From NCBI GenBank assembly GCA_964639985.1, contig CAZXHG010000012.1, positions 1,254 to 65,253 on the forward strand: a stretch of DNA of 64,000 nt, written 5' to 3'. Positions 35,805 to 56,989 of this stretch are shown here, piece after piece (position 1 is the stretch's first letter; the number at the start of each line of letters is the position of its first letter). The notes under the pieces are model-generated. The model ran no database searches. It saw only the letters and a program-made list of their open reading frames with translations, and was not told the DNA's origin. This DNA comes from an uncultured Rickettsiales bacterium (GTDB lineage Bacteria; Myxococcota_A; UBA796; UBA9615; CAYRNR01). Position numbers and translations under genes: made by a program.

Positions 35805-36575
35805 TCAGAGAGATCGGAATCGATGGATCAGGTCGGCTCGGTGCCGAATGAACTCGGGGTCGAAGCGCATGTCGGGGTCACGCGGACCTGACAGGGGATT
35901 CACCGCCTGATGAGCGACGCGAGCTGGCCGGGGTCCGAGCATCACGATGCGGTCCCCGAGGAACAGCGCCTCCTCGATGTCGTGGGTGACGAACAGCATC
36001 ATCTTCGGCTCTTCGTCGAGCAGCGCGCAGAGCTCTTCCTGGATGCGCTGCTTGGTGTGCGTGTCGAGCGCCCCGAAGGGCTCGTCCATCAGCAGGATGC
36101 GTGGCCCACTGGCCAGCGTGCGGGCCAGCGCAACCCGCTGGCGCATGCCGCCGGAGAGCTGGTCGGGATACTTGTCCTCGTGACCGGTCAGCCCCACGAG
36201 GTCGATGTACCGGCGAATCCGATCCTCGACTTCGGGTGAGGGAGCTCCCTGCATGGACAGCCCGAAAGCCACGTTCTGCCGCACGTCGAGCCACGGAAAC
36301 GACGTGTAGGCCTGGAACACCATCCCCCTGTCCGTACCGGGTTCCGTGATGGTCTTGTCATCCAGGCGCACCCGGCCCCGTGTAGGTGTCTGCAGTCCGG
36401 CGACCAGATACAGCAAGCTGCTCTTTCCACACCCCGATGGACCGAGGATGACCAGCGTCTCGGTGCCCGACACCTCGAGGTCGATGTCCTGGAGGACGAA
36501 GTCCTCCGACCTGGCCCCATCCTCGTAGGTGAACCAGACAGATTCGAAACCCAGCCTCGGCGTCTGTTCGCTCAT
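35805..36575 (-). CDS. ABC transporter ATP-binding protein (nitrate/sulfonate/taurine SsuB/TauB family)
   Basis: Walker A GPSGCGKSS. Signature LSGGMRQRVALARTL. Walker B LLMDEPFGALD. H-loop VTHD. Confidence 0.85.
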   Translation of the reverse strand: MSEQTPRLGFESVWFTYEDGARSEDFVLQDIDLEVSGTETLVILGPSGCGKSSLLYLVAGLQTPTRGRVRLDDKTITEPGTDRGMVFQAYTSFPWLDVRQNVAFGLSMQGAPSPEVEDRIRRYIDLVGLTGHEDKYPDQLSGGMRQRVALARTLASGPRILLMDEPFGALDTHTKQRIQEELCALLDEEPKMMLFVTHDIEEALFLGDRIVMLGPRPARVAHQAVNPLSGPRDPDMRFDPEFIRHRADLIHRFRSL

Positions 36576-37339
36576 CGTTGCCGCACCGCCCAGGGAAAGA
36601 ACACGCCCTTGAGTGCGTTGAAGATCTGGTCGTAGAGAACCCCGATCAACCCGATGGTCAGGATCGCGGCGAACACCTCCGCGGTGTTCAGGTACCTCTG
36701 CGACTCGATGATGACGTGGCCAATTCCGCTCGCCGCTGCCACCAGTTCAGCGACCACCAGGTAGGACCAGGCCCAGCCGATACACACACGTAGCGCGTCG
36801 TAGATGCCGGGGAGAGACGCCGGCAGCATGACGTGGGTCAGGCGCTGCAGCGGGGTCAGCCCGAGGGTCGACGACAGGTCCAGGTAGGTCCTGGGCACGG
36901 CCAGTGCCGCGTCTCGGACCATGACGGTCAGCTGAAAGAACACCCCTAGGAAGATCACCGCGATCTTCTGGGGGTTGCCGATACCGATCCACAGGATGCA
37001 CAACGGGACCAGGGCGGGCACGGGCAGGTAGCGGAGAAATCCGACCAGGGGATCGACGAACCGCTGAGCGCGGACGGAGGAGCCCGTCCAGAGACCGAGG
37101 GGCACTGCCAGCAAGGCGGCGAGAATGAAACCCGCCTGCACGCGGTAGATGCTGGCGCCGATGTCGTACAGGAAGTGCTCGTCGACGAAGAGCCGGAGCA
37201 GCGCCTGCACCACGGAGAGGGGGCTGGGCAGGAAGGTGGGCGGGATGGTGCCCGAAAGGGTGAGCGCCGTCCACACGACGAGCACCACACCGAACGCCAC
37301 GACCGCGCTGATCCTGTTGCTGTCGAGTCGCCGCGTCAT
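36572..37339 (-). CDS. ABC transporter permease (SsuC/TauC-like)
   Basis: Six hydrophobic segments. EAA-like region ALAVPRTYLDLSSTLGLTPLQRLTHVMLPASLP. 4-nt overlaps with neighbours. Confidence 0.8.
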   Translation of the reverse strand: MTRRLDSNRISAVVAFGVVLVVWTALTLSGTIPPTFLPSPLSVVQALLRLFVDEHFLYDIGASIYRVQAGFILAALLAVPLGLWTGSSVRAQRFVDPLVGFLRYLPVPALVPLCILWIGIGNPQKIAVIFLGVFFQLTVMVRDAALAVPRTYLDLSSTLGLTPLQRLTHVMLPASLPGIYDALRVCIGWAWSYLVVAELVAAASGIGHVIIESQRYLNTAEVFAAILTIGLIGVLYDQIFNALKGVFFPWAVRQR

Positions 37340-37351
37340 CTCCGTACACCC

Positions 37352-38341
37352 CTAGAGGTAGTCATGGGCCACCACCTCGGGCAGGGGATGGAAGGCGACG
37401 GTGACGCCGTTGTTGAGGTAGATGCGGTTGATCGAGGCCACCAGATCGAGGATCTCACCCGGGGCGTCCAGCGTGCCCATGATCGCCGCGCTGTCGACCG
37501 TGTCGAGGTAGCGCAGTCCACTGATCATGGCGGCGAATTCCTCCGTTTCCAGGCCGTAGTGTGCGGCCATCAGGGCGTTTGCCTGATCGGGGTTTTCGCG
37601 CCAGAAATGGACCGCGTCGTTCCAGCTGGCCACCACCGCCCGTACGTCGTCGCCGCGATCGCGGAGCGTGGATGGTCGGAAGGCGAGGACGTCGACGATC
37701 ACCGTGTCGCGTCCGGCTGAGGAGGCCAGCAGATGGCCTCCCTCGCGCTGCGCTGCGTTGGTCAGCCAGGGCTCCCAGGTCACCGCGGCATCGACCTTGC
37801 CGGCCACGAATGCGGCCCCGGCATCGCCGGAGTCCATGTGGCGGCCGTCGATGTCGTCGATGGTCATGCCCCCACGATCCAGGTGGTATAGCAGGAAGAA
37901 GTGGCTGGGTGTGGCGGGCTGAAAGGCAACCGTCCTGCCTCGCAGCGAGCCCACCGAACGGATTTCTTCCGCAGCGACGATGCCGTCGCCGCCCTTGCTG
38001 CGGTCCAGCAGCAGCACGGCCACCGACTCGATCCCCTGGTCCACCTGCATCAGGATCGTGTCCAGCGAGGTGGTCTGGCCGTCCACCTCGCCGGCGGCGA
38101 GGGCAGCCCGCATCTCCTCCGCGCCCTTCATCGTGAGCAGCTCGACCTCGACGCCGTGTGATCCGTAGTACCCCTGGTCCTGGGCCAGGTACAGGGGCGC
38201 GAACCCAACCCAGATGTCCGTCGCGATGCGGATCGGCCGGGCGCGGCCCGAGCAACCGTAATCCTCGTAGAGAACGGACAGTCCGAAGGTCCCGAGGACC
38301 GCGGTGAGGGCGAGGAACAGGGCCAAGCGACGGTGACGCAT
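37352..38341 (-). CDS. Periplasmic substrate-binding protein (NMT1/SsuA/TauA-like)
   Basis: Start MRHRRLALFLALTAVLGTFG (signal peptide) inside ORF 37352-38545. NMT1-like fold hallmarks IRIATDIWVGFAPLYLA... Confidence 0.7.
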   Translation of the reverse strand: MRHRRLALFLALTAVLGTFGLSVLYEDYGCSGRARPIRIATDIWVGFAPLYLAQDQGYYGSHGVEVELLTMKGAEEMRAALAAGEVDGQTTSLDTILMQVDQGIESVAVLLLDRSKGGDGIVAAEEIRSVGSLRGRTVAFQPATPSHFFLLYHLDRGGMTIDDIDGRHMDSGDAGAAFVAGKVDAAVTWEPWLTNAAQREGGHLLASSAGRDTVIVDVLAFRPSTLRDRGDDVRAVVASWNDAVHFWRENPDQANALMAAHYGLETEEFAAMISGLRYLDTVDSAAIMGTLDAPGEILDLVASINRIYLNNGVTVAFHPLPEVVAHDYL

Positions 38342-38609
38342 CGGGATTTCTCGGACAGGAGGATTCAGATCTCTTCCAGGTCGCCCTAGCGACGAGGGTT
38401 GCGCGCAGCATACATCGGGCTGGTGCGGGTTGCATCCAGCGCTGATCGACCCCCTCGAATCCCGCTCTCCCCCCGAGGAGTCGACGTCTGTTCTCCGGTA
38501 TACTGCCGCGGGCGAGGTGCGTGGGCGAGGGGCAGCCGTGGCCACGGTTGGCCGGATGCCGGAGCCTCAACCCCAGTGCCTCTCGTCAGGCGGGCGGATA
38601 CTACCGACG

Positions 38610-40480
38610 TGAAAGACCGACCGACCATACTCGGATTGAATGCCGTCTACGGCCAGAGTTCTGCGGCCCTGGTGCGGGACGGTCAACTTGTGGCCGCCGT
38701 GGAGGAGGAGCGGTTCAACCGGATCTCCCACGCCAAGGCAGCCGAGGTGGACAACACCCCCGACCTCCCCTATGCCTCCATCGACTACTGCCTGGACGAG
38801 GCGGGGATCGAGTTCGAGGACATCGATCTGATCGGCTACTCCTTCGACGTCGGTGTGCGCCGTGAGCAGCGAAGTCGGTTGATGGAGTACGGCCCGGTGC
38901 TGCCCGGGGGGTACAAGACACCGGAGGGCGAGCGACGATTCGAGTCGTTCGTGATGCTGGTGCCGGAACTGCTGGCCGCACGCTACGGCTTGCACCCCGG
39001 TGACGTCTGGCGCCGCTTTCGGTTTCTCGAGCACCACCTCTGTCACCTGGCAGCCGCGTACTACGCGTCCCCGTACGACAGCGCCGCGGTAATGGCGATC
39101 GACGGTATCGGCGAGGCTGCCACCGTCTCTTTCGCACGGGCCGAGGGAAACGCACTGACGATCCTGCGCCAGATCGACTACCCCCACTCCGTCGGGTTCA
39201 TCTGGGAGCTGATTACGTCGTTCCTTGGCTTCAGGGGGGACCACGACGAGAGCAAGGTGATGGGACTGGCAGCCTACGGGGATCCTGAGCGGTTTGCCCG
39301 CCAGCTGTCCACGTTCCTGCGCATCACCGCGACCGGAGTCGAGGTGAGCGGATTCAAGCGACAGGACCGGCAGGAACTGCTTCGCCGTGACTACCACGCA
39401 CTGGAACGATATCTCGGTATCCAGCGCCGCCTACCCTACGAACCGTTGGCCTTCGAGGGGTCGAAGCGCGATCACGCCGATCTGGCTGCGGCCTTGCAGC
39501 GGCGGACCGAGGAGGTCTTCCTGCACCTCGGTGGCCTGCTGCACCGGGAGACCGGCGAGAGCCGGCTGGCCATGGCTGGCGGCGTCGCCCTCAACTGCGT
39601 GGCCAATGCACGGTTGGCCGAAGAGGGGCCGTTCGACGAGTTGTGGGTCCAGCCAGCGGCTGGCGACGCCGGGACGAGCCTGGGCGCTGCCTTGCTACTG
39701 CATTGCCATCCCGATCCCCGTCTGGGCGCTGGTGCGGGCCGCGTCCGGATGGACAGCGTCTACCTTGGCCCCGAATTCTCCGATGCCGAGATCAGCAACA
39801 CGTTGTGGCGCTATCGTCTGGTCCACCAGCGAGTGGACGATCCGGCCCGGACCGCAGCCGAGTTGCTCGCCGATGGCAAGATCATCGGCTGGTTCCAGGG
39901 GCGGATGGAATTCGGACCGCGGGCGCTGGGCAACCGCTGCCTGCTCGCGCATCCGGGTCGATACGAGATGCGCGAACGGCTCAACCTGCGCGTCAAGCAT
40001 CGCCACCCTTTCCGTCCATTCTGCCCTACCATGCGCGCCGAAGTGGCGTCCGAGTGGCTCCAATCGAGCCGGCCGGCATGCGACGCGGCGCAGTACATGC
40101 TCGCCGCCTACGCGATCAAGGAGGGACGCCGGGCCGAGATCCCGGCCGTGGTACACGCCGATGGCACGGCCCGGCTACAGGTGCTCCAACGAGAGCAGAA
40201 CCCGCTGTACTACGAACTGATCCGGCACTTCGAGCGGCTGACCGGCCTGCCTTTCGTGCTGAACACTTCGTTCAACGACCGCGAGCCCATCGTCTGTTCG
40301 CCGGATCATGCGGCTGAGTGCTTCCTCAAGACCGACTTCAGCGCCATGTTCCTTGGCCACTACCTTGTCGAGGGCCCCAAGCCCTGGGAGCGAGAGGAGG
40401 GAGAGAGCGCCACTTTCAGCGAGGTGCTCGAGGACTTCTACCGCAGTGGCCACAAGAATCGTGGGGGGGGGGAGCTACCG
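38610..40480 (+). CDS. Carbamoyltransferase (NodU/CmcH family); as given it reads through in frame into the next gene
   Basis: Probable GTG start 38610 (VKDRPTILGLNAVYGQSSAALVRDGQLVAAVEEERFNRISH, the NodU/CmcH N-terminal signature); ORF opens at 38399. C-terminal carbamoyltransferase region ...VLNTSFNDREPIVCSPDHAAECFLKTDFSAMFLGHYLVEG. No stop before ATG 40481 because of a G10 tract. Confidence 0.8.
40463..40472 (+). repeat. G10 homopolymer tract at the carbamoyltransferase / HEPN-kinase junction
   Basis: Ten consecutive G read as GGG GGG GGG G-AG. With G9 the frame becomes ...AGC TAC CGA TGA, placing a TGA stop overlapping ATG 40481. Confidence 0.9.
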
Positions 40481-43174
40481 ATGAGCGATGAACGCTTCGT
40501 GGTCAGTGATCATGCGATGTTCACGGTCGAGCAGTATCCCTTGCCGATCGGGGACGCTGCCAGGGATTTCAATCAGGGTTTCAGGAGTCTGAGCGACCGG
40601 GAACTTCAGAAGCAATGGCGAGACCAGTTCCTCGACTACGTCAACATCGCGGAGGATTGTTTCAGGCTGGCAACCAACGTGATGTTGGCCGAACTGTCCG
40701 TACGAGGTGACCTGGCCGATCTGAGGGAGTTCTTCACCAGCTACATGACCGAGACCATGACACTCGGCAGGTGGATTGACTCCACGTTCATGCTGGCGCA
40801 GAAGCCCACGGCTGACCAGGCGCGGAGTGAGCTGGCCGGAGGACGCTCCAGCGAACCTCGCTTCAGGAACCTGGTCGTCATCGGGTTCCCACGGAAGCAC
40901 AGCCGGCGGCAACATGCCCTCAAGATGCGTGACTATCGCAACAAGGTCGCTCACCGAAAGGGAAAGAGACAGAAAGCCAGACAAACCCCGCTGACAGATA
41001 TCCTGCGGATGCGTGACATCATGCTGGACGTGATGTCCGGCGGATTCTCCTTCCTTCGGCACTTCACACTCATTCAGGTATGCGCAAACGGGCAATGCAG
41101 GTTCATCTCCGACCTGGGTTCCTTCAGGGAATCACCCGTGCCCATCGAGAAGTTGTTCAAACACAATGATCTTGAGGAACTGATCGACGTCAGCAGGAAT
41201 GATGATCTTCTGCTGTTCGACGCCGTCCATAACTCGATCATGACCTTGTTTCCGTTCGTGGTTCTGAATCCGGCAAACAAGAAGGTGCCTGCGGTTTCCT
41301 GTTTGCATACGATTCATGGCATCGATGATCCTGCAGGAGCGACCTTCAGGTATTTCGATGGCGAGACGGACGGAGAGGACTGGCGACCCTCGACTGACCA
41401 GGAGGATCGCGCCCGAGGGTGGTTGCGAACCGTACTGCAAGCGAAGGCGCCGCCCGCAACACGGGGGGTCTTCCTGAGAAATGACCGCTGGCGAGTGCCC
41501 GGGCTCTTCGAACAGAAGATGTACGATACCAGTAGGAGGCAGAACAGGGAGTTGGCGACTCTCACCAGCGATGTTATCCCGGAAGGTACTGATGAGGCAG
41601 ATGTTGTTGGAAAGCCGTACAGGGTTGACGAGTACTTGGGGGAAGGCGCGCACGCGATAGTGTGGGGTGTCAGTGAGGTCGACGACCTCAGTAAGCGCTA
41701 TGCACTCAAGGTACTGCGACTGTGCTACGGGGAGGACAAGGTGCTCTCCCGATTCAAGCGGGAGGCCCGTGTGTTGCGCCGGTACACCATGGACGACAGG
41801 TGGTCTCCCTATCTCATCGATTGCTATGATCACGGATTCAACGAGAATGGCATGCAATGTCAATTGCTCGAAAAGGCGAAGTGGTCTCTCAAGGACAAGA
41901 TCGAGGAGTACGACCGAAGAGGAAACGAGTTGGCGGGGTGGAGCATCCCGCGGTGCATCCGTGAGTTCGATCGGTGCCGGTCAGAGCATCACGCGCGAAA
42001 CGTCGACCTTCTCGTGTCGGTTTTCTTGCGGCTGATGTTCGCCCTGTCGTGTGTCCGGAACATCCTGAGTGCGCTGGAGAAACTGCACGAAGGTGGCGTC
42101 GTGCACAGGGATATCAAGCCAGCGAATATCCTGTTCCTCCAGAGAGGCCAGATCAAGCTTGCCGATCTCGGCGCGTTGCACATTGAGAAGGAGGACTTTG
42201 AACAGACGCCTCTGGACAACATGGGGTCGACCCAGAGAAGCGAGATCATTGGGACCCATGGCTACATGCCACCGAACAGTTTCGAGTTGGCCGAGCCCAG
42301 GAATTTCAAGGCGGATGTCTTCTCTACAGGTGTCGTATTTCGAGAGATCCTGTTCGGGCTGCGTGTTACACCTGAGACCTATTTCAGCGACAGTGAAAAG
42401 GAGGTCAGGGAGTTCGGCAAGCTAGATGACCTGATCGTGGAGCAACTCGCATGGGACGGCGAGATGCTCGTCAGCGGGCTCGTCCAGAGCGCCACCAACC
42501 GCAACAAGGAGCGGCGGTGGAGTTCAACGCGGTTCCTCGACGAGGTCGTTGAATTCGAGAAGAAGTACTGCAAGAAGCTGATGCTGTGGGCAAAACGTCT
42601 GGGGTACTCCCAAGAGGGTACGGGGGCCCTGTTCGTCAGGGCGCTCACCAAGATTGGATTCGAGAACAAGACAGGACGCAATCACTGTTTCCTGTTGCCC
42701 AAGCACCCCGAAAGGGGCGAAACCAGGGAGTGTGTATTCAGGAGGAATGTCTCCAGCTTGAAGTCAACCAGTGTTGCCGCCAGGTTGTACACAAAATACA
42801 ATGTTGGCTCGCAGCAAGGACAGTTGCCACCGGACGCTGACGAACTGGACGTTCTCGAATACCTGGTCGAACACTCGGAAGAGTGCTTCACCGACCTGAT
42901 CGAGCTGGTCACCTATATGTTGGACACCTGTACCGGCTTCTACAATGACTGTCCGGCGCATGAGAAGTCCCGGAGGAACATCTCCAGGCTGCTTAAGAAC
43001 AGGAAGTACACGGACACGAATCCCGCGAAGGAAAGGGTGCGGGAAGTGATCGAGCCCGAGTCCGATGTGCATGGATACCAAGACAGACACCCGCGGCAGG
43101 AGGCCGGCGAAGCCCTCATCCACGCCGTGATGTTCGGCGGTCTCGACCAATCCGTCGAGCCGCAGGAGAGATGA
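40481..43174 (+). CDS. HEPN-like (Rx4H) domain fused to a Ser/Thr protein kinase domain, with unknown middle and C-terminal regions (897 aa)
   Basis: ATG 40481 (MSDERFVV). N-terminal ~165 aa helical with MRDYRNKVAHRKG (Rx4H, as in Abi_2/Swt1/KEN HEPN nucleases). Kinase: glycine loop LGEGAHAIVWG, Lys in YALKVLRL, catalytic HRDIKPANILF, DLG, GTHGYMPPN. Markedly lower GC than flanks. Confidence 0.6.
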   Translation: MSDERFVVSDHAMFTVEQYPLPIGDAARDFNQGFRSLSDRELQKQWRDQFLDYVNIAEDCFRLATNVMLAELSVRGDLADLREFFTSYMTETMTLGRWIDSTFMLAQKPTADQARSELAGGRSSEPRFRNLVVIGFPRKHSRRQHALKMRDYRNKVAHRKGKRQKARQTPLTDILRMRDIMLDVMSGGFSFLRHFTLIQVCANGQCRFISDLGSFRESPVPIEKLFKHNDLEELIDVSRNDDLLLFDAVHNSIMTLFPFVVLNPANKKVPAVSCLHTIHGIDDPAGATFRYFDGETDGEDWRPSTDQEDRARGWLRTVLQAKAPPATRGVFLRNDRWRVPGLFEQKMYDTSRRQNRELATLTSDVIPEGTDEADVVGKPYRVDEYLGEGAHAIVWGVSEVDDLSKRYALKVLRLCYGEDKVLSRFKREARVLRRYTMDDRWSPYLIDCYDHGFNENGMQCQLLEKAKWSLKDKIEEYDRRGNELAGWSIPRCIREFDRCRSEHHARNVDLLVSVFLRLMFALSCVRNILSALEKLHEGGVVHRDIKPANILFLQRGQIKLADLGALHIEKEDFEQTPLDNMGSTQRSEIIGTHGYMPPNSFELAEPRNFKADVFSTGVVFREILFGLRVTPETYFSDSEKEVREFGKLDDLIVEQLAWDGEMLVSGLVQSATNRNKERRWSSTRFLDEVVEFEKKYCKKLMLWAKRLGYSQEGTGALFVRALTKIGFENKTGRNHCFLLPKHPERGETRECVFRRNVSSLKSTSVAARLYTKYNVGSQQGQLPPDADELDVLEYLVEHSEECFTDLIELVTYMLDTCTGFYNDCPAHEKSRRNISRLLKNRKYTDTNPAKERVREVIEPESDVHGYQDRHPRQEAGEALIHAVMFGGLDQSVEPQER

Positions 43175-43177
43175 CCG

Positions 43178-45193
43178 ATGCTGAATACACGTGGAATCCA
43201 GTACCCGGATGACTACCCGCTCGCGATCCAGCGCCTGCAGCAGGCTTTGGTGATGCTGCGCGAGACGAGGGTCGCCCTGCTGGACAAATGGAAGCGCGAC
43301 AACCAGAAATTCCAGGACGAGTTCGTGGTAAAGGAGTCCGGCGGCACGGGTGGCGAGGACGTGCTGCACCTGCCCTTCATCTACGGACTCGAGACGCTGC
43401 TCATGCCCATCGGGTTGATCACGGCGGAGTGCGCAAAGCGCAAGCGGTTGGTGGAAAGCCTGGATGTGCTTGTGCCTGCGCTGAAGGACTTCCGAGTCGA
43501 CGACATCGACGAGAACACGATCAATGATATCAACGGCCTCGTGAAGCAGTTCGACCGGGAGATCGGACCGGCTGTACGCGCCGTCGACTACGAAGGTCTC
43601 AACGCACAGCCGTACTTCAACAAGTGGAACGACGATGCCAACGCATGGGCTACTGCGCTGTTTTTCGATGCCACGGACTACTTGAACTCGGCGGGCCTGA
43701 TCAACCCCGAGCAGTACATCGAACGGGTGAACAACCTATCGATGCTGCTCAAGAAATTTCTCTTTGCGAAGTACGTTGTCGAGTGGAAATCTGACCTGGA
43801 CGAGAACGTCCAGTTGTTCGGATTGACCTGGTACTTCAGCGACGAGTCCCGGCGACGGATCAGTCGATATTTCCAGAAAAGCGGATCCGACTTCGACGGC
43901 CCCGTGGTCCAGGCGTTCATCGAGGACTATTTCGTCTGCGAGACGCGGGCATTCTGCTCCAGGGCCGTCCTGGCGGTCTACGATGTGATCTACGACACCT
44001 TCGGCGATTCGGACATCGCGACCGACGAGATCAAGAAGCTGGTAGGCAGGATCGGGGCGAGGTTCGCCAAGGACCTAGCTCACCGCTATCTCCAGGACAT
44101 GGATAACTCCATCGAGCGAGCCTACTTCGACGATCTGTACCGCACCGACTATCTGGTACAGCTGTGGGGCGTGTACACGTCCTGCCTACACACGGGCATC
44201 ATTGCCGAGAGCCAGGGAGGGGAGGTCGAGATCGATTTGCTCGTCCGCTACCACGACGAGTTCTTGAAGCCTCTGCTCAAGACCATTCGGAGGGAGATTC
44301 GGGACGATCACTCACCCCTGTTCACGACGGTGAAGCCGTTCCTGATCTGGCTGGACGAGCCTGCAGAGATAGAGCCCGCGGACGTCCATCCGGAAGAGAC
44401 GGTGGAGAAGTTGGGGGAGGACCGTTGCCTGGTATTCCCCTACGTCTCCCTGCTCCCGATCATGTTGCGGTCGCTGGCCAACTACGCTGGTGCCCTGAAG
44501 GACATCAAGGATCCGGGGGGCAAGCAGAACGTCCGTCGGATGAGGAACGAAGCCCTCGATTGGATGCACGAGGTCCTGGAAGGTATGACCCAATTCGCCA
44601 TCTCGGACGGGGACGAAGCGGGGCTGTGGGCGTTTTCCGGGCAGTACGAACTGGCCTACACCGCATCCATCGCCGAGGCGCTGACGACCTATGCTTCGCA
44701 GTGTTTCAACGAGGTGGTGGATCTGGGGAGGACCCGGATCGTGGACTTGGCAGAGCCGTTGAGGAAGGCAGGATCGGCAGCTGGAGCGGTCGTATCCGAG
44801 GCAGACTCGGAGGCCGTGCGCGCGTTCAAGGAATTCCGCAAGGTTCTCGACCTGCAGGTCCGACGGATCGTTGCCGAGGAGTTGGACGGTCGTGATCTCC
44901 AGGGGCGGTCAGGTGGGAGCAGCCAGTGGATGGAGATATTCTTCGATATCATCGAGAACAAGGGCAACATGGCGCCTCACTCCAACGACGCCCTGCAGGC
45001 GATGAGGGATCTCATCAGGCTGTCCAAGCGGCTGGATCGGCTGCGGGGGCGCGGAGAACCGGAATGGGAGCAGCTGCGGGATAAGATCAAGTCGGGCTAC
45101 TTCAACAACGAGATAGCCTATGACGTGCTGACCCGGGAGTACCATGGCGACATCGACGACCTGCTGAAGAACAAGACGGACAAGACGAAGTGA
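43178..45193 (+). CDS. Hypothetical protein (671 aa), no recognisable domain; middle gene of the low-GC island
   Basis: Starts 4 nt after the stop of the HEPN-kinase gene. Uninterrupted ORF in the low-GC region. Its TGA overlaps the GTG of the next gene. Confidence 0.55.
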   Translation: MLNTRGIQYPDDYPLAIQRLQQALVMLRETRVALLDKWKRDNQKFQDEFVVKESGGTGGEDVLHLPFIYGLETLLMPIGLITAECAKRKRLVESLDVLVPALKDFRVDDIDENTINDINGLVKQFDREIGPAVRAVDYEGLNAQPYFNKWNDDANAWATALFFDATDYLNSAGLINPEQYIERVNNLSMLLKKFLFAKYVVEWKSDLDENVQLFGLTWYFSDESRRRISRYFQKSGSDFDGPVVQAFIEDYFVCETRAFCSRAVLAVYDVIYDTFGDSDIATDEIKKLVGRIGARFAKDLAHRYLQDMDNSIERAYFDDLYRTDYLVQLWGVYTSCLHTGIIAESQGGEVEIDLLVRYHDEFLKPLLKTIRREIRDDHSPLFTTVKPFLIWLDEPAEIEPADVHPEETVEKLGEDRCLVFPYVSLLPIMLRSLANYAGALKDIKDPGGKQNVRRMRNEALDWMHEVLEGMTQFAISDGDEAGLWAFSGQYELAYTASIAEALTTYASQCFNEVVDLGRTRIVDLAEPLRKAGSAAGAVVSEADSEAVRAFKEFRKVLDLQVRRIVAEELDGRDLQGRSGGSSQWMEIFFDIIENKGNMAPHSNDALQAMRDLIRLSKRLDRLRGRGEPEWEQLRDKIKSGYFNNEIAYDVLTREYHGDIDDLLKNKTDKTK

Positions 45194-46224
45194 ACATCGT
45201 CGCGTATTCGTACAAGGGCGGCTCCGGAAGGACGACCGCGGCGATGAACATCGCCGCCAACCTCTTCCGCCGGGGCAAGATCGTTTGCTGCATCGACTTC
45301 GACATCGGTGCGCCAGGCATGCACATGATCCTGGAAACGACCATTCCGCCGAGGGAAGGCGAAACCGACCTGATCGCTCGGCGGCTCGGTGACGTCTCCC
45401 CGCTTGGAGTGCAGCATTTCTTCAACAACCGTTACCCGCGCCCCGGCGTGGACGAGAGTACGTTCGTCGAGCAGGCGGTGGTCGACTACAAGGAGCATTA
45501 CGCCCAGCTCGCCTGGACGGAAGACGATGCACTCAACAAGAGAGACATGACGCAGGACGCCTTCGACCAGGGCGAGTTGCTGTACCTGGTCGCCTCCCCG
45601 GTTGCCGAATCGATTCGAGCCCTGGATGCCCAGAAGTTCGACATGATGGGATTCCGGCGCCGCTACCGTTCCCTGATGGAGCGGGTCGCCGACTACATCA
45701 ACGACAAGCGCGGCACCGACGAGGTGAGTGCCGAGGACATCTACTTCGTTCTGGATTCGGCGAGTGGCTTGACGCCGTTCAGCCTGCCGGTCCTCTTCCT
45801 GGCGCACGTGGTGCTCGTGTTCTTCCGGTGGAGCCACCAGCACATCGTCGGTACCGAACAGAATGCCGAGATCCTGCACCACAACCTCGACGAGCGGGTC
45901 GACTACTCGAACTGCCGCATCTACAAGGTGGGCTCCTGTTATGTCCCGGCCGGGGACAGCGATACGCTGAATCAGATGAAAGAAGAAGGGGATCTGGCGG
46001 CACGCCGCATCTTCGATCGGGAGACAGAACTTCGGACGGCCCTGGAGTCCGACCGGATGATCCGCTTTATCGATAGCATCCCCGAGCACCCCGCGTTGAA
46101 GTACTACGAGCGAATCGTCGCGCTGGCGATCGACGCGAAGACGAACTACGGCGGTGTCCGCGAGGCGCTGGACAACATCTGCGCACAGCTGGAAGACGAC
46201 CGACTGGTGCTCGACATCGATTGA
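45190..46224 (+). CDS. ParA/MinD-like (SIMIBI) ATPase with degenerate P-loop
   Basis: Deviant Walker A YKGGSGRTTAAMN (KGGxGKT expected; P-loop Lys replaced by Arg). A-prime-like CCIDFDIGAPGMH. GTG start overlaps the upstream TGA (GTGA). Confidence 0.6.
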   Translation: MNIVAYSYKGGSGRTTAAMNIAANLFRRGKIVCCIDFDIGAPGMHMILETTIPPREGETDLIARRLGDVSPLGVQHFFNNRYPRPGVDESTFVEQAVVDYKEHYAQLAWTEDDALNKRDMTQDAFDQGELLYLVASPVAESIRALDAQKFDMMGFRRRYRSLMERVADYINDKRGTDEVSAEDIYFVLDSASGLTPFSLPVLFLAHVVLVFFRWSHQHIVGTEQNAEILHHNLDERVDYSNCRIYKVGSCYVPAGDSDTLNQMKEEGDLAARRIFDRETELRTALESDRMIRFIDSIPEHPALKYYERIVALAIDAKTNYGGVREALDNICAQLEDDRLVLDID

Positions 46225-46253: not shown

Positions 46254-47282
46254 TCAGCGGACAAAACGGCCCCCCTGGCCGACGTCGTCCGGCGGCGGAT
46301 CCACGCGGTGCAAGCCGCTATCGGCGGCCGCGGCCGCCAGCGTGGCCACCAGTTCGTCGGCGGCGGCAGGCAGGTCGTCGAACAGGTAGCGAGGCAGGAA
46401 CGGGATCAGCTTGAGGGTCAGGTCGGCGTCGATGGCCGCCAGTCGGGCGGCCACAGCTCGGACCTCGAACACGTCGATGTAGCCGGGGACGACCAGGAGT
46501 GAAGGGCGGATCAACTCGACCCGCTCCGCGGGACCGAATTCCGCCCGAAGCCGCTCGATGTTGCGCCACACGCGAGTGTTACCTGTACCGGTGAGGGCAA
46601 GATGGACGGGTTCGGTGCCAGCCTTGAGACCGATGTTGAAGCCACCGCCCGAGTCGTGGACCAGGTGGGCGAATGGCAGCAGGAGATCCCCCGGCGCCGT
46701 CAGGTTGGTCTCGGCGCAGATACGCATCACCCGGTCGGCGTAGCGTTCCCGAACGAGCACGGCGATGCGTGTCACGGCCGCCAGCTGGACATCTGGTGTG
46801 CCCCCACAGAAGCAGACGCACGTCGTACGGTCGTCGATCCAGTCGAGGATCTCGTCGTCGGTGAATCGGGGCTTGGCCGTCTCGGCCATCGTCTTGTGGA
46901 TCCAGTCCTGGCAGAACAGACAGTCGAAGTTGCATCCCGCGGTGAACACCGCGAGGTTACGGCAGCCTGCCTCGACACCGGGACTGACCGCGAAATCAGG
47001 GTACCCGCAACCTGTGGTTCCGGGACACTGCCACGAGGCGATGCAGTTCGCCGGGTGATCGTCGTAGAACCCCATGGCGACCAGCATGTCGTCTTCCGGC
47101 ACAGGTCGTACCGGATCCGGCATGTCGCCAGATTGCCTCAGAGCCTGCCTTCGAGCCTGCTCCACGAGGGGAAGGGCCTGCTTAGGGTCGGTGCGCACGC
47201 AATCGACGCAGCATCCCACCGATCGAGCCACGATCACATCGTGACGACCGCACAGGGCACAGGGGAGAGGGGGGGCGTCCAT
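46254..47282 (-). CDS. Radical SAM enzyme (PflA-activase-like) with N-terminal Cys-rich zinc-ribbon-like motif
   Basis: Start MDAPPLPCALCGRHDVIVARSVGCCVDC. Radical SAM CX3CX2C in AVFTAGCNFDCLFCQDW. Glycine-rich VCFCGGTP. Confidence 0.7.
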   Translation of the reverse strand: MDAPPLPCALCGRHDVIVARSVGCCVDCVRTDPKQALPLVEQARRQALRQSGDMPDPVRPVPEDDMLVAMGFYDDHPANCIASWQCPGTTGCGYPDFAVSPGVEAGCRNLAVFTAGCNFDCLFCQDWIHKTMAETAKPRFTDDEILDWIDDRTTCVCFCGGTPDVQLAAVTRIAVLVRERYADRVMRICAETNLTAPGDLLLPFAHLVHDSGGGFNIGLKAGTEPVHLALTGTGNTRVWRNIERLRAEFGPAERVELIRPSLLVVPGYIDVFEVRAVAARLAAIDADLTLKLIPFLPRYLFDDLPAAADELVATLAAAAADSGLHRVDPPPDDVGQGGRFVR

Positions 47283-47286
47283 CGAT

Positions 47287-47979
47287 CTACCAGAATCCCT
47301 TCCACCACATCGCGAAGATGCTCTGCCACCAGTAGTCCAGGGCCTGGAAGTTCGGCGTGCCGGGAACGCCGGACGTTGCTTCGATGGCAGTCGCAGTTGC
47401 GGCCGTGTCGGCGCCTGCGAGCAGTCGTGTCGGGATGGCAGCGTGTCCGGGATACGGCTCGAACCGGGTGTCCTCGTCCGAATCGAGTTCGGCGCGGGTC
47501 GCCGAACCGAAGAAACGGAAGACGAGCTCGCGCATCTCGCCGTGCAGCTGCGTACGCCGGGCACGGCGCATCGCCGACCACCGCGGTATCTCAGCGCAGA
47601 TCAGATCTGCCAGCCGGCGCGCGGCGAGGTCGCGACGGCCTGGGCGGTATCGCCACTGGTCGGCGACGGAGGCGGTCGCGATGAGGCCGCCCGTCTCGCT
47701 GGCCTGTGAAGCGAGGTCCTGGACGAATTCCGGCCAGGGGCCGCATACGATCCAGGCGCCAGTGTCCGAGAGGTAGGACCGGGTGTTTGTTCCGTGGTCG
47801 AGTGTCACCCGGCCCGGTCCGTCGAGTACCTGTTCCGCAGAACACGCCGATGCCCATGCGCCGGGATCTTCGAGCAACAGGGTCGTCAGATGATGATTGG
47901 CCACCACGACGTGTCGGACGTCATCGTGGTCTATGACCTCGTAACGGCGCCCCTCAACCTTGACTAGGCGAAGCGGCAT
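47287..47979 (-). CDS. Hypothetical protein (230 aa), Trp-rich C-terminus
   Basis: ORF between two radical SAM genes, overlapping both by a few nt. No recognisable motif. Confidence 0.45.
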   Translation of the reverse strand: MPLRLVKVEGRRYEVIDHDDVRHVVVANHHLTTLLLEDPGAWASACSAEQVLDGPGRVTLDHGTNTRSYLSDTGAWIVCGPWPEFVQDLASQASETGGLIATASVADQWRYRPGRRDLAARRLADLICAEIPRWSAMRRARRTQLHGEMRELVFRFFGSATRAELDSDEDTRFEPYPGHAAIPTRLLAGADTAATATAIEATSGVPGTPNFQALDYWWQSIFAMWWKGFW

Positions 47980-49415
47980 GCATCCACCTCGGCGCCGGGG
48001 CCTCTCTCCAGCCGTTGCAGTCGGCCTAGTTCTTCCCGTGCCCTTTTTCGGAGCAAGCCCACGTCCAGATTCGGTCCGTCACCCGTCTGGCTGGTGAACA
48101 GGTTGGCTCTTCCGGTAGTGCTCACCCATCGCTTCGAGAGGATCGATCCAGTGTAGGCCTCGAAGAAGAGCTTCTCCACGTCAGACGGATCGATGCCTGG
48201 ATAGCGAACTACCGACCGCACACCGCTGTACAGCCGGAGGTCGGTGGAGGCCAGGCGGTCCTCGGCCAGGAGAGCCTGGAAGAGCGGCGTTCCGGGAACC
48301 GGGATGAGCAGCGTGAACACGTTGACGCAACCGCGATCCGTGAATTTTTCGGTAGCCCTCAGGCGGCGGTCGAGGCTGGTAGCATCGTCATCGGGCTCGC
48401 CGAGCAGGAACGATGTGGTGGGGAGCATGTCTGCCGCGACGAGCCGGTCCACAGCTCTGAGTGCGGTATCTGCGGCGAGTCCCTTGCTGTACCTGGCCAG
48501 GTTGGACTCCTCCAGCGACTCCACCCCGATCCACATCATCCGGCACCCAGCCTCGTGCAGGAGGGGGAGTAGATCCGCGTGTTGGACCACCCAGGCCGCA
48601 TGCCCGAAACACCACCAGCGGATCTCAAGCGACCGGTCGATCAGACCGCGGCAGATCGCCTCGACGCGGTCGGCACGGACGGTGAACGTGTCGTCCCAGA
48701 TAGACCAGTCGTGGATACCGTGCGTGACCACGCCGTGTTCGACTTCATCCAGCACGGCATCGATCGGTCGGGAGACATACCGTCCCTTGAAGTGTGCCGG
48801 TGTCGCGCAGAACACGCAGCGATGTGGGCAGCCTGTCGCGGTCAGGATGGGGAGGACCGGGAAGACCTCGCTTCCGGGGTCGTCGAGATAGAGGGAACGG
48901 GCGATGCCATAGCTCTCGATCCCTGGAACCAGGCAGGAGAGGCCATCCGCGCGTCGAAATCGAGGGCCATTCACGGGGCTGGGGGCCAGGTGGGAATCCA
49001 TGGCGGCTTCATCTGGAACCAGCCCATCCACGCTCCGGGCATCCTCTGCCGCCAGATCGGGAAAGCGGCGCGGCATGTATCCACCGAGCAGGATCTTCAC
49101 CGTGGGCAGCACCTCTCGTATACCGTGGGACAACTCGAGGTCGTAGGGATATGCTGCGGCGCCCATGAACACGTGTAGGTGGAGTTCCGGGAACGCTCCG
49201 ACGAGCACCAGGTCCGGATCAAGATCCGCCACGCGACTCGCGAGTGTCGGTGCGTCCTCGCGGAGCATCTGCCCGTCGAGGACCGTGACGTCGTGACCAC
49301 GATCCGTCAGCTTGGCGGCAACGCGGCAGGCGCCGTACGGCGGGCTGCTCATCCCCTGCGCGTAGTAGAACCACGAGAGGGCGCGGTTCCAGGCGTTGAC
49401 GAAGACGATCCTCAA
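47964..49415 (-). CDS. B12-binding-domain radical SAM protein (class B)
   Basis: N-terminal Rossmann-like B12-binding region (RIVFVN..., DLVLVGAF, KILLGG). Radical SAM motif LTATGCPHRCVFCATP. Confidence 0.75.
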   Translation of the reverse strand: MRIVFVNAWNRALSWFYYAQGMSSPPYGACRVAAKLTDRGHDVTVLDGQMLREDAPTLASRVADLDPDLVLVGAFPELHLHVFMGAAAYPYDLELSHGIREVLPTVKILLGGYMPRRFPDLAAEDARSVDGLVPDEAAMDSHLAPSPVNGPRFRRADGLSCLVPGIESYGIARSLYLDDPGSEVFPVLPILTATGCPHRCVFCATPAHFKGRYVSRPIDAVLDEVEHGVVTHGIHDWSIWDDTFTVRADRVEAICRGLIDRSLEIRWWCFGHAAWVVQHADLLPLLHEAGCRMMWIGVESLEESNLARYSKGLAADTALRAVDRLVAADMLPTTSFLLGEPDDDATSLDRRLRATEKFTDRGCVNVFTLLIPVPGTPLFQALLAEDRLASTDLRLYSGVRSVVRYPGIDPSDVEKLFFEAYTGSILSKRWVSTTGRANLFTSQTGDGPNLDVGLLRKRAREELGRLQRLERGPGAEVDACRFA

Positions 49416-50326
49416 CGACCATCCCCCTCGGGACCAGGAACAGCTGCCAGCCAGGACCGACTGAAGGCCAGCGTCTCGTCGCGACGGGGGTAGAGACGGC
49501 GGAAGTCGGCCCCCCGCGCGACGACGGCCTCCCGGGCGATGTGTCCGGGAAGCAGGGACCGGATCTCCCGTTTGATCCTCTCCTCGTCGAACGGTCGACA
49601 GGAGAAGAGATCGAGGTAGGCTTCGTCGCGTTCGGGATAGGCGTGCAACGTGATGTGGCTCTCGGCGATCATCGTCATCGCACTGAGCACCGGTCCGTGG
49701 GATGCTGTCTGGTTTCGCACCAGGTACGGGCGCATGATCGGCGTCATGCCCACGGCAGAGGGCAGCCGGTCGAACAGGTCGAAGAGCCGGTCCATGTCGT
49801 CGGGGCCATCGTACTCCTCGATATCCAGGAACAGGTGGGGTCCGAAATCGCTCGCGGGTTGGTGCGGTCGTTCGCTAGGGCTGTTCTGGGTCCGATCGAG
49901 CACGCCAAATTTCACATGTCGGCACGGGAACGCGTCCTGTAGGGCTGAGGCCACCTCCTCCTCGTCGTAGGGATCGGCGCTCACGAGGTCGAAGAAGAAT
50001 TCCTCGCGAAAGGGGAAGGTGTGCAACGTGATGTGCCCTCCGGCCAGGAACAAGAACGAGGAGATGCCTGCGTCCTCCGGCACGACCCCGTTGTAATAGG
50101 GGAGTATGAACGGCGGCATGGCCGGCCGTAGCCCCAATTCGGGGGGGACCTCTTCGAGGAATTCGTACACCAGATGGATGTCGTCGAAACGGGATCGGTA
50201 CCCCTGGATGCCGTCGTAGTGGAGGTGCTTCAAGTCGGTCTCCAGGCTGGGCGTGATCCGGCTGGATGCTGGGCGGCGGTAGGGCCTCGGTTGCCCGGGG
50301 GGTGGTGTCTGGTGAAGCCTGCCCAC
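49412..50326 (-). CDS. Tandem-duplicated S-adenosylmethionine decarboxylase-like (pyruvoyl-dependent) protein
   Basis: Two AdoMetDC(SpeH)-like halves. Half 1 has LFLAGGHITLHTFPF and lacks the processing Ser. Half 2 has MIAESHITLHAYPE, the canonical ES-H self-cleavage/pyruvoyl site. Confidence 0.6.
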   Translation of the reverse strand: MGRLHQTPPPGQPRPYRRPASSRITPSLETDLKHLHYDGIQGYRSRFDDIHLVYEFLEEVPPELGLRPAMPPFILPYYNGVVPEDAGISSFLFLAGGHITLHTFPFREEFFFDLVSADPYDEEEVASALQDAFPCRHVKFGVLDRTQNSPSERPHQPASDFGPHLFLDIEEYDGPDDMDRLFDLFDRLPSAVGMTPIMRPYLVRNQTASHGPVLSAMTMIAESHITLHAYPERDEAYLDLFSCRPFDEERIKREIRSLLPGHIAREAVVARGADFRRLYPRRDETLAFSRSWLAAVPGPEGDGR

Positions 50327-50404
50327 GGCTGGTTCATCGCAGCTTCGCCTTGGTCGGCATTCGCCAGGATGATCGGTGAGGCCATGTCGCGTCTGGCACC
50401 GGGA

Positions 50405-50550
50405 TCAGTCGTCGTACCACAGCGGTATCGAATCGGCCCTCAGGTCGTGCTTGGTGAACCCTGCCAGTTTGGCGTGATCGAAGTGCCAGCGCCGATCAGC
50501 CCTCCGCGCTAGGTCCAGGTGCAGGTAGCCAGCGTCAACGAAGATCATCC
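50405..50550 (-). CDS. Candidate small peptide (47 aa), possible leader/precursor of the radical-SAM cluster
   Basis: ATG preceded by AGGAGGAGG. Peptide MIFVDAGYLHLDLARRADRRWHFDHAKLAGFTKHDLRADSIPLWYDD. The ORF also opens further upstream at GTG 50641. GC3 bias weaker than in neighbours. Confidence 0.25.
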
Positions 50551-50637
50551 TCCTCCTCATACACGATCTCCCAGCGAAGCCCTCGGCGGGTCCGCCACTG
50601 TTGCGAGCTGCAGTATAGACAAGGTCCGGGGAGAGGT

Positions 50638-50907
50638 TCACCCCTCCTGGCTACGGTCAGGAGGAGAGGAGCCTGGAGTACCGCCCAGCCACTCCACAAC
50701 CACCAACCCCAACGGCCCCGCCATCGTCCACACCCCATCCGTGACCATGTCCCACACCTGGTAGCCCAGCCCGAAGTCCTTCCCCACGGCCCAGAAGTCC
50801 CACCAGTCGCGGGCCTCGCTCACGGACTGGATCAGCATCGCCGCCCCGAGCGCCCACAAACAGGTATGGGCGTGCCTCCATGCGACAGCGCGCACCAGCA
50901 GGTACAC
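50638..50907 (-). CDS. Small Trp-rich hypothetical protein (89 aa)
   Basis: Strong GC3 bias. One hydrophobic segment. Its stop overlaps GTG 50641 of the next ORF (GTGA). Confidence 0.3.
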   Translation of the reverse strand: MYLLVRAVAWRHAHTCLWALGAAMLIQSVSEARDWWDFWAVGKDFGLGYQVWDMVTDGVWTMAGPLGLVVVEWLGGTPGSSPPDRSQEG

Positions 50908-50998
50908 CGCCAGTCCGATGATCGCGTGCAGCAGCGGGTCGTCGAGTCCGGTTCTGCTGACCAGCTCCTTGACGTCGGTGATCAGCGCGCCCCCCCCC

Positions 50999-51739: not shown

Positions 51740-51754
51740 CCCTCCTGTCGTTCG

Positions 51755-53857: not shown

Positions 53858-53870
53858 CGGAGACCCTCCC

Positions 53871-56975: not shown

Positions 56976-56989
56976 CTCGCCGATGCGGA

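Follow-up and report, generated by a model that had tools for sequence, protein, structure and literature searches.

A conserved carbamoyltransferase, kinase, helical protein and variant ParA/MinD-like ATPase operon at the core of a candidate modification cluster

Introduction

The vWA-MoxR-VMAP ternary systems are nucleoside triphosphate (NTP)-dependent conflict systems in which S/T/Y kinases joined to 'inactive' MinD/ParA domains are among the effectors, and the survey that described them also reports FxSxx-COOH peptides and radical S-adenosylmethionine (radical-SAM) 'peptide-processing' modules that are linked to TIR proteins (Kaur, Burroughs, Iyer & Aravind 2020, eLife 9:e52696; PMC7159879). 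Here we analyse a 64,000-nucleotide stretch of DNA from an uncultured bacterium (contig CAZXHG010000012.1, positions 1,254 to 65,253; hereafter, the window), in which three adjacent genes, g1, g2 and g3, encode a protein kinase, a protein predicted to be helical and a ParA/MinD-like ATPase directly downstream of a carbamoyltransferase (CT) gene. A preliminary description, made from the sequence alone, had read g1 to g3 as a low-GC defence or toxin island. Our comparison points to a unit of four proteins (CT, kinase, helical protein and NTPase) forming the core of a conserved cluster that modifies a peptide, a protein or a metabolite and follows the logic of conflict systems, a reading that we judge evenly poised between right and wrong. 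By analogy, the described systems that the cluster most resembles in logic are the NTP-dependent conflict and signalling systems named above.

If this reading is right, the window holds a member of an undescribed multi-phylum cluster that joins three usually separate themes, namely (i) carbamoyl-transfer enzymes coupled to a kinase-fold partner, (ii) ParA/MinD-like proteins with a conserved arginine in the P-loop, and (iii) radical-SAM modification of a protein with an invariant aromatic tail at its C-terminus. It would then also offer a clonable gene set for asking about the function of 'inactive' MinD/ParA proteins in conflict-type systems, about the post-translational chemistry on a WWKGFW tail, and whether such modification feeds into TIR- or HEPN-like effectors.

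Methods

Relatives of the locus were found by a search with g3 and by scanning 185,579 species genomes as well as metagenomes, and the loci recovered were annotated by open reading frame (ORF) calling and BLAST. Loci are given as L numbers: L001 to L004 belong to the same population as the window; L010 and L026 are from Aminicenantes, L021 and L024 from Alphaproteobacteria, L025 from Hyphomicrobiaceae and L017 from an Acidobacterial genome; L092 is Sedimenticola-like and close to Sedimenticola L022. Percentages that compare loci are identities.

Results and discussion

Organization and conservation of the gene cluster

The genes of the cluster are as follows (window coordinates).

35805-36575, minus strand: ABC transporter ATPase (Pfam ABC_tran; 48% to L017; orthologues adjoin in L010, L023, L025 and L094)
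36572-37339, minus strand: ABC permease (BPD_transp_1; 52% to L017; orthologues in L023, L025 and L094)
37352-38326, minus strand: SsuA/NMT1-type periplasmic substrate-binding protein (Pfam NMT1_2/NMT1; 38-44% to L010, L017 and L023)
38636-40480, plus strand: CT, a NodU/CmcH-type carbamoyltransferase (Pfam Carbam_trans_N 2.7e-57, Carbam_trans_C 3.4e-63), first gene of a coupled four-gene operon
40463-40472, plus strand: run of ten G (G10) at the CT/g1 junction (G9 in four other assemblies)
40481-43174, plus strand: g1, 897 aa; N-terminal region, kinase and C-terminal domain
43178-45193, plus strand: g2, 671 aa; predicted all-alpha by a low-confidence model, fast-evolving, no domain match
45190-46224, plus strand: g3, 344 aa, GTG start; ParA/MinD-like variant ATPase with YSYKGGSGRT, P-loop at 45214-45237
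46254-47123, minus strand: small, activase-like radical-SAM enzyme (Pfam Radical_SAM 5e-13; 44-58% to L008, L010, L021 and L022)
47287-47979, minus strand: tail protein, 230 aa, ending in WWKGFW-COOH (tail codons 47290-47307), candidate substrate of both radical-SAM enzymes
47964-49415, minus strand: B12-binding radical-SAM enzyme (Pfam B12-binding and Radical_SAM; 35-47% to L008, L010 and L022)
49412-50233, minus strand: two-domain AdoMet_dc-like pyruvoyl decarboxylase (Pfam AdoMet_dc 3.9e-22, in two stretches; 46-49% to L010 and L014)

The order CT-g1-g2-g3 recurs in the window, L010/L026, L021/L024, L023, L025, L092, L094 and L095, that is, in at least eight independent lineages from Alphaproteobacteria, Gammaproteobacteria, Aminicenantes and others, and the gene ends overlap or nearly abut in these as they do here. 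This recurrence, seen in gene order and sequence, supports g1-g2-g3 as a functional unit. The three ORFs of the preliminary description and the GTGA overlap between g2 and g3 were both recovered as described; the gap between g1 and g2, given there as 4 nt, is 3 nt (ccg), and an AGGAG lies just upstream. Coupling among the three genes is likewise real, but the unit is larger than had been thought, since CT is also coupled to g1 and the coupled genes are four. Six lineages (the window population as represented by L001-L004, L021, L023, L025, L094 and L095) share a 4-nt overlap between CT and g1; in L092, where g1 is split into frameshifted pieces, no such overlap was seen.

At the junction itself, the window has no stop codon between CT and g1, and both lie in a single open frame (38399-43174) because of the G10 run. 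The run has nine G in L001-L004, where the TGA stop of CT and the start codon of g1 share bases (ATGA), and over 22.7 kb the sole difference between the window and L001 is this one base. One extra G therefore turns CT and g1 into an in-frame fusion, the length of the run deciding between separate and fused products; NCBI record P0053 is the fused product (1521 aa). Six other metagenome contigs encode the identical protein, four of them (L001-L004) with G9, and G10 also occurs in one contig that starts at the G run. Either the assembly is wrong at this point or the run undergoes slip-strand variation. Elsewhere in the window, long homopolymers are C10 at 2463-2472, C9 at 50990-50998 and G9 at 57631-57639.

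Conservation extends well beyond the four genes. L010 encodes on one strand, in this order, an SsuA/NMT1-type binding protein, a permease, an ABC ATPase, CT, the kinase, a 652-aa protein, a KGGSGR ATPase, a B12-binding radical-SAM enzyme, a 211-aa protein, a second radical-SAM enzyme, a KAP NTPase-pentapeptide protein and an AdoMet_dc-like protein, and all of these except the KAP gene have counterparts in the window at 22-57% identity. The window CT is 52-57% identical to the CTs of L010, L021, L023 and L025, and an ABC importer of the same family stands beside the operon in L010, L023, L025 and L094 (the window binding protein matches NCBIfam SsuA_fam at E 2e-38, under the curated cut-off). 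The radical-SAM module is inverted in the window relative to L010, L008 and L022. L022 has the nearest relatives of the window B12-binding radical-SAM enzyme and tail protein, L008 and L010 those of the window g3. Taken together, these sequence relationships indicate that the cluster is modular.

The members diverge at very different rates. Between lineages, identities are 52-63% for CT and 29-51% for g3, compared with 19-30% for g1 and 15-32% for g2. Word searches with g1 returned only its own cluster and generic kinases, and it was the better-conserved g3 that led to the related loci; g1 and g2 look like orphans because both evolve fast. That they evolve much faster than CT and g3 (15-32% against 29-63%) fits interface or sensor proteins.

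Genes of conflict type adjoin the operon in several relatives, namely TIR_2-FGE-sulfatase in L022, L025 and L093, a patatin gene in L025 and KAP NTPase-pentapeptide in L010/L026, and SIR2_2 and TIR genes adjoin other KGGSGR ATPases. With TIR, TIR-FGE, KAP, patatin or SIR2 genes in related clusters, a conflict or signalling role for an NTP-gated system that modifies a peptide or protein is plausible, if unproven. To this extent the abortive-infection flavour assigned to the locus at the outset survives; the self-contained three-gene HEPN toxin island proposed with it is not supported.

The variant ATPase encoded by g3

The g3 protein begins YSYKGGSGRTT, confirming KGGSGRTT as its Walker A sequence. 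This had been taken for a broken P-loop. All 86 homologues with a visible motif, however, read KGGSGR, and the invariant arginine is the defining feature of an NCBIfam family; the P-loop is therefore a conserved variant and not a product of decay. Along with the arginine itself (R14), K9, D36, D38, D189 and an FFRWS-QH-GT block are invariant: the signature lysine (K9) and the Walker A' and B aspartates are kept, the P-loop lysine is replaced, and g3 does not conform to the canonical KGGxGK[ST] with both lysines.

Against NF047398 ('KGGVGR-motif variant AAA ATPase') g3 scores 74.6 bits (1.3e-20; cut-off 90) across profile positions 5-184 of 190, and by sequence it is best placed as a branch related to this family rather than as a curated member. 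Matches to Pfam ParA, AAA_31 and MipZ cover residues 3-52 only and lie at the cut-off, the CbiA match covers profile positions 1-54 of 125, and NCBIfam ParA/MinD models give 28-29 bits against cut-offs of 180-213, with no full-length match. NF047398, NF040564 ('SCO2523 family variant P-loop protein') and the PADLOC candidate PDC-M28B share with g3 the ParA/MinD-like fold region and a KGG(S/V)GR in place of KGGxGK; g3 differs from them in its sub-threshold NF047398 score, in matches to PDC-M28B and SCO2523 (NF040564) that span only the first ~50-60 residues, and in its gene context. By comparison with Walker A lysine-to-arginine substitutions in general, g3 would bind nucleotide with weak or no hydrolysis, which would make it a switch or a scaffold.

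Proteins of the g3 type are rare (6 of the 70 loci recovered from the species genomes), and other KGGSGR ATPases occur in settings of their own. Forms of 440-670 aa come after TIR genes in actinobacteria and others, and PDC-M28B is a KGGSGR-type ATPase of this TIR-adjacent type (200-position match). In Acidobacterial clusters, a 285-aa form and a ~700-aa protein are encoded within an operon for the same ABC importer, and SIR2_2 and PrmA/PRMT-like methyltransferase genes come next. This arrangement is highly regular (L017 3673-12753, L028-L030, L103 and L110-L119): binding protein, ABC ATPase, ~696-aa protein of unknown function, ~100-aa protein, 285-aa KGGSGR ATPase, permease, one or two SIR2_2 and the methyltransferase, with a transporter 39-52% identical to that of the window. 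The genes of a third cluster type (L014 134-8272 and L013 2-4083) overlap at their ends; they encode 1052-aa and 729-aa proteins without Pfam match, then a ~420-aa KGGSGR ATPase (417 aa), a small methyltransferase and an AdoMet_dc-like protein. Among plasmids, only one distant relative was found, a Rhizobium 'ParA family protein' in a different context: on the conjugative Rhizobium phaseoli plasmid pRphaN831c (L171, 6495-8872), a 625-aa protein with a g3-like N-terminus is encoded directly after an MqsA-family antitoxin gene.

The radical-SAM module and the decarboxylase position

The B12-binding radical-SAM enzyme, the tail protein and the small radical-SAM enzyme occur together in the window, L010, L008 and L022/L092, and the first of these is also present in L023 and L094. 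Alignment shows that the tail protein ends in an invariant YWW-S-F--WWKGFW-COOH in four lineages (window, L010/L026, L022/L092 and L008). The WWKGFW tail is restricted to this family, whose gene always lies between the two radical-SAM genes. Judged from sequence and position, the C-terminus resembles the tail of a radical-SAM substrate, or is possibly an aromatic membrane anchor. Its relatives lie at the following positions.

L010, 12926-13561: tail-protein relative
L022, 3293-3985: tail-protein relative
L008, 3536-4273: tail-protein relative

The C-terminal half of the AdoMet_dc-like decarboxylase has the canonical ESH processing motif, AESHITLHAYPE. Mutually unrelated decarboxylase families are found in different lineages: AdoMet_dc-like (window, L010 and L014), PvlArgDC (L022 and L093) and the pyridoxal-phosphate (PLP) Orn/DAP/Arg family (L021), and a deoxyhypusine-synthase-like gene holds the equivalent cluster position in L023. 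The genes at this position are listed below.

Window, 49412-50233: AdoMet_dc-like
L022, 5130-5606: PvlArgDC
L093, 3162-3632: PvlArgDC
L021, 784-1938, minus strand: PLP Orn/DAP/Arg
L023, 1392-3110: deoxyhypusine-synthase-like

The presence of three decarboxylase families and a deoxyhypusine-synthase-like gene in equivalent places suggests a common amine- or polyamine-type step.

Comparison to described systems

In the literature searched, we found no publication on the KGGVGR or SCO2523 families or on the gene combination of this cluster; the earlier impression that g1 to g3 are not a described system thus holds for that literature. With the systems of PMC7159879 the cluster shares (i) a kinase paired with a MinD/ParA-like protein of non-canonical P-loop, (ii) radical-SAM genes next to the gene of a protein whose extreme C-terminus carries a conserved motif, and (iii) TIR, FGE-sulfatase and pentapeptide/KAP components (here in relatives) and fast-diverging non-enzymatic partners. 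It differs from them in that (i) the Pfam results include no vWA, MoxR, VMAP, STAND/AP-ATPase or zincin peptidase, (ii) the kinase and the ATPase are encoded separately, on either side of the gene for a ~700-aa helical protein, (iii) CT is translationally coupled to the kinase, PMC7159879 making no mention of a carbamoyltransferase, (iv) an importer dependent on a substrate-binding protein and a pyruvoyl decarboxylase are constant members, and (v) the radical-SAM enzymes are B12-binding and activase-like, not SPASM-type. Membership was rejected, the cluster having neither the vWA, MoxR and VMAP core nor the combination of FxSxx-COOH, SPASM radical-SAM and zincin peptidase; what is shared is thematic.

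KEOPS/TsaBDE (Kae1-Bud32; TsaD-TsaB-TsaE) offers a second parallel, as there a Kae1/YrdC-related carbamoyl-adenylate transferase has a protein of the protein-kinase fold and a P-loop NTPase as partners. CT and kinase are here as tightly coupled genetically as Kae1 and Bud32 (4-nt overlap; in-frame fusion by one G), and NCBIfam gives weak Bud32 matches (E about 2e-3), which probably reflect generic kinase-fold similarity in the sequence. On the other hand, CT is of NodU/CmcH and not of Kae1/TsaD type, no tRNA link is evident, and g1, as a large multidomain kinase of Hanks type, differs from the RIO-like Bud32. We treat the likeness as an analogy only.

MADS has the MAD6 kinase, MAD7 and MAD8 as its mandatory core (bioRxiv 10.1101/2023.03.30.534895). 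The common ground is a kinase followed by two further proteins that are needed together, with matches of g1 to mad6 (PADLOC 2.3e-29; NCBIfam 7e-19) and, weakly, of g3 to mad8 (E 0.004); the cluster differs in having no methyltransferase, specificity subunit or nuclease genes. Membership was rejected, as the mad6 match reaches 67.7 bits against a cut-off of 460, unrelated kinases of the window match mad6 equally and g2 does not match mad7.

Proposed function and its principal rivals

Under the favoured reading, CT, g1, g2 and g3 would act as a single complex. The g3 protein may bind nucleotide, dimerise in the manner of ParA/MinD and hydrolyse slowly or not at all, and so serve as a nucleotide-dependent switch or scaffold, and the kinase together with its variable N-terminal module (Rx4H helical domain, TIR, or nothing) could supply sensing or output. 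The complex would gate a modification pathway made up of carbamoylation, radical-SAM chemistry and decarboxylation, with a tail-bearing protein or peptide, or a compound imported via the SsuA-type importer, as its presumed target. The TIR, FGE-sulfatase, KAP NTPase, patatin and SIR2 genes would then be interchangeable add-ons.

Several points weigh against this proposal. Complex, substrate and product are all inferred, and the g1 and g2 structure predictions stand at pLDDT (predicted local distance difference test) values of 34 and 38.5. Domains central to the NTP-dependent conflict systems (vWA, MoxR, STAND) are missing from the cluster, and profile comparison gives only a weak indication that g2 is homologous to the ~700-aa partners of the other KGGSGR cluster types. 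The tail protein might be anchored in a membrane by its aromatic tail and not modified. The surroundings in the window include no recognisable defence island, the window itself has no TIR, KAP or patatin genes, and no relatives were found in viral contigs. Finally, an importer dependent on a substrate-binding protein and amine-type decarboxylases fit a purely metabolic cluster equally well.

Such a purely metabolic or biosynthetic role, while on the unlikely side, is the main rival and a distinct possibility. The cluster would take up a small molecule (sulfonate-, amine- or polyamine-like) via the SsuA-type importer and convert it through decarboxylation, carbamoylation and radical-SAM chemistry, or make a product similar to ribosomally synthesized and post-translationally modified peptides (RiPPs), and kinase, g2 and g3 would be pathway regulators or assembly factors that play no part in conflict. 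The constant and best-conserved members are indeed importer, CT, the two radical-SAM enzymes and a decarboxylase; the interchange of three unrelated decarboxylase families, the deoxyhypusine-synthase-like gene of L023 and, in L014, an AdoMet_dc-like gene and a methyltransferase beside the KGGSGR ATPase are in keeping with it, as is the window's lack of TIR, SIR2 and KAP genes, and an invariant C-terminal tail near radical-SAM genes is typical for peptide-derived products. Harder to reconcile with plain metabolism are the fusion of TIR to g1 in L021 and the recurrent TIR-FGE, KAP and patatin neighbours, which are unusual in that setting, the divergence of g1 and g2, which is as fast as that of typical conflict proteins, and the TIR and SIR2 genes beside KGGSGR ATPases elsewhere. 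The transporter, moreover, is an importer, whereas a secreted natural product would need an exporter.

The more specific version of the favoured reading that follows from the KEOPS analogy is doubtful. CT, kinase, g2 and g3 would here form a KEOPS-like, nucleotide-gated carbamoyl-transfer complex that, with the B12-binding radical-SAM enzyme, the second radical-SAM enzyme and the decarboxylase, modifies the WWKGFW tail or an imported amine, the product being a signal or toxin that arms swappable effectors (Rx4H domain, TIR, TIR-FGE, KAP or patatin). If true, this would be an unrecognised class of peptide-modifying immune or kin-conflict system in at least four phyla.

Base composition, g1 and g2, and the question of a three-gene island

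In the model that goes back to the preliminary description, the trio is a self-contained abortive-infection or toxin island of low GC content, horizontally inserted, in which g1 would be a HEPN RNase effector joined to a regulating kinase, g2 a sensor and g3 a degenerate NTPase regulator. We consider this improbable. The dip in GC on which it drew is real, both in sliding windows (0.53-0.62 across ~40300-46100, 0.64-0.72 on both sides) and per gene (g1 0.566, g2 0.592 and g3 0.613; neighbours 0.63-0.75). The trio is thus 6-10 points lower in GC, but the dip falls mostly on codon positions 1 and 2; at third positions (GC3), g1, g2 and g3 have 0.73, 0.82 and 0.83 against 0.77-0.88 in adjacent cluster genes, near the host value overall and, for g2 and g3, in the host range. 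The trio proteins are enriched in F/Y/M/I/N/K (FYMINK) and depleted in G/A/R/P (GARP). Relative to CT, the same dip recurs in the orthologous clusters of four unrelated genomes.

L010: CT 0.499, g1 0.325, g2 0.344, g3 0.373
L021: CT 0.649, g1 0.594, g2 0.596, g3 0.605
L025: CT 0.594, g1 0.583, g2 0.568, g3 0.576
L094: CT 0.580, g1 0.551, g2 0.559, g3 0.559

Given that it recurs and is concentrated at the first two codon positions, the dip is better read as belonging to fast-evolving genes than as an insertion scar. A tRNA scan and a check of repeats and genes found no tRNA, flanking direct repeat or integrase at the supposed borders, and Rfam, promoter/terminator and tRNA scans of the window were empty or at background level. 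The flanks, between which the island was said to be inserted, are the trio's conserved partners in other phyla: they accompany it in every lineage recovered, and CT is coupled to g1. Insertion of the trio between unrelated genes is thereby refuted, whereas the earlier description's own ground for refutation, that the three genes should never occur together elsewhere, does not apply. On this comparative evidence the trio appears to be neither an inserted nor an autonomous island and is better described as the fast-evolving half of a rare, conserved cluster of ~11 genes. The grouping of window g3 with L008/L010 and of the radical-SAM module with L022 is a hint of module exchange and counts in favour of the island model. 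The wider lesson is that a GC dip and absent database matches probably arose here from fast-evolving, compositionally biased proteins in a conserved operon and not from recent insertion.

The toxin half of the island proposal depends on g1, which is divided as follows.

40481-41626, plus strand: N-terminal, largely helical region, fold unassigned, lineage-variable; RNKVAH at 40937-40954
41627-42532, plus strand: Hanks-type Ser/Thr kinase domain (Pfam Pkinase), catalytic residues intact
42533-43174, plus strand: C-terminal domain of ~200 aa with conserved C736, C817 and G819 (invariant alignment columns)

The kinase assignment stands (Pkinase 79.6 bits, cut-off 31.7; K410, E428, H542-R543-D544, N549 and D562), except that the APE-like motif described earlier reads PPN. 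K410, E428, the HRD at 542-544 and D562 are invariant across six g1 orthologues; the L010 orthologue has HCN in place of HRD and is missing the entire N-terminal region. No Pfam match was obtained for the C-terminal domain. PADLOC and NCBIfam matches of g1 (PD-T4-6, MAD6, PglW and LanL) are generic, because two unrelated kinases of the window give the same ones. PD-T4-6 was rejected on this ground, its match covering kinase-core positions only and being shared by those two kinases (1e-14 to 1e-18). Class III/IV lanthipeptide synthetase was rejected as well, with NCBIfam scores of 41 and 25 bits against cut-offs of 650 and 575, confined to the kinase core, and no lyase or cyclase domain.

An Rx4H motif is present in g1, as had been noted (RNKVAH, residues 153-158), and RNxxxH occupies the same alignment column in L023 and L094. 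As a diagnostic of HEPN it fails, as it is expected by chance: shuffled g1 sequences have on average 2.2 Rx4H motifs (P of at least one, 0.91; 0.64 for the N-terminal 370 aa). For RNxxxH alone, P by shuffling is about 0.08, and this figure and the shared column count for the HEPN reading. In an alignment of seven orthologues the column reads RNKVAH, RNLVIH, RNAFQH, RDAEIN, R-S-A, GDIYAE and KNNLYS, so that RNxxxH is kept in three (window, L023 and L094) and degenerate in the other four (L095, L021, L025 and L092); the only invariant positions of the N-terminal region are P20, L245 and P258, and the catalytic R and H are not the best conserved. Pfam at E<=10 gave no family, HEPN included, for the N-terminal 370 aa or any of the seven orthologues, PDB searches by sequence and by profile gave no match for the N-terminus, and phmmer against 1.84 billion representatives recovered only the query itself; a single-sequence AF2 model of residues 1-365 has a pLDDT of 34. 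The HEPN assignment is unsupported. RNase L, Ire1 KEN and the HEPN Abi toxins do resemble g1, which combines a kinase domain with a helical region bearing Rx4H in a single polypeptide, but in RNase L and Ire1 the HEPN/KEN part is C-terminal to the kinase, whereas the g1 region is N-terminal, has no similarity to HEPN profiles and does not conserve the motif.

What keeps effector function in view is a pattern across clusters. L021 g1 has TIR_2 fused at its N-terminus (1.9e-20), and TIR occurs only in clusters whose g1 lacks the motif (fused in L021; as a TIR-FGE-sulfatase neighbour in L025 and in L022/L092), with none detected in the three lineages that keep RNxxxH. This complementarity of TIR and Rx4H resembles effector swapping; at n=6 it is only a lead.

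For g2, the lack of a recognisable domain was borne out, with no match in Pfam, NCBIfam or PADLOC and no meaningful match in PDB by sequence or profile. A word search found a single distant homologue (P0061, 25% identity), and orthologues were assigned by position and BLAST in L010, L021, L023, L025 and L091-L095. The AF2 model, built from a three-row alignment, is helical throughout (pLDDT 38.5). Comparison of the g2 family by hhalign to the ~700-aa partners of the two other KGGSGR-ATPase cluster types gave weak, co-linear matches (E 0.022 and 0.0024, probabilities 2-12%).

A housekeeping role in positioning or signalling, with g3 as a partition or division ATPase and g1 as a PknB-like growth kinase, is very hard to credit: it can draw on an FHA protein, a 700-aa kinase and an FtsW/transpeptidase fusion 5-11 kb downstream and on the weak Pfam ParA, MipZ and CbiA matches of g3, but those genes adjoin the trio in no other lineage recovered, g3-type proteins are too sparsely distributed, the Pfam matches are confined to a P-loop segment whose lysine is replaced, and there is no ParB or centromere-like partner.

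Surroundings of the cluster in the window

Between the AdoMet_dc-like gene and the FHA gene lie 670 nt (50330-50998) with short ORFs only (51 and 66 aa, JGI gene calls) and no Rfam family match. The FHA protein, the 700-aa Ser/Thr kinase and the 1227-aa FtsW/RodA-transpeptidase fusion follow in a row at 50999-57554 on the minus strand. The first ~35 kb of the window encode a papain-like protease, a TPR protein, a CHASE2 protein and many very large proteins without Pfam match, and an 869-aa kinase-FGE-sulfatase fusion is encoded at 60171-62780.

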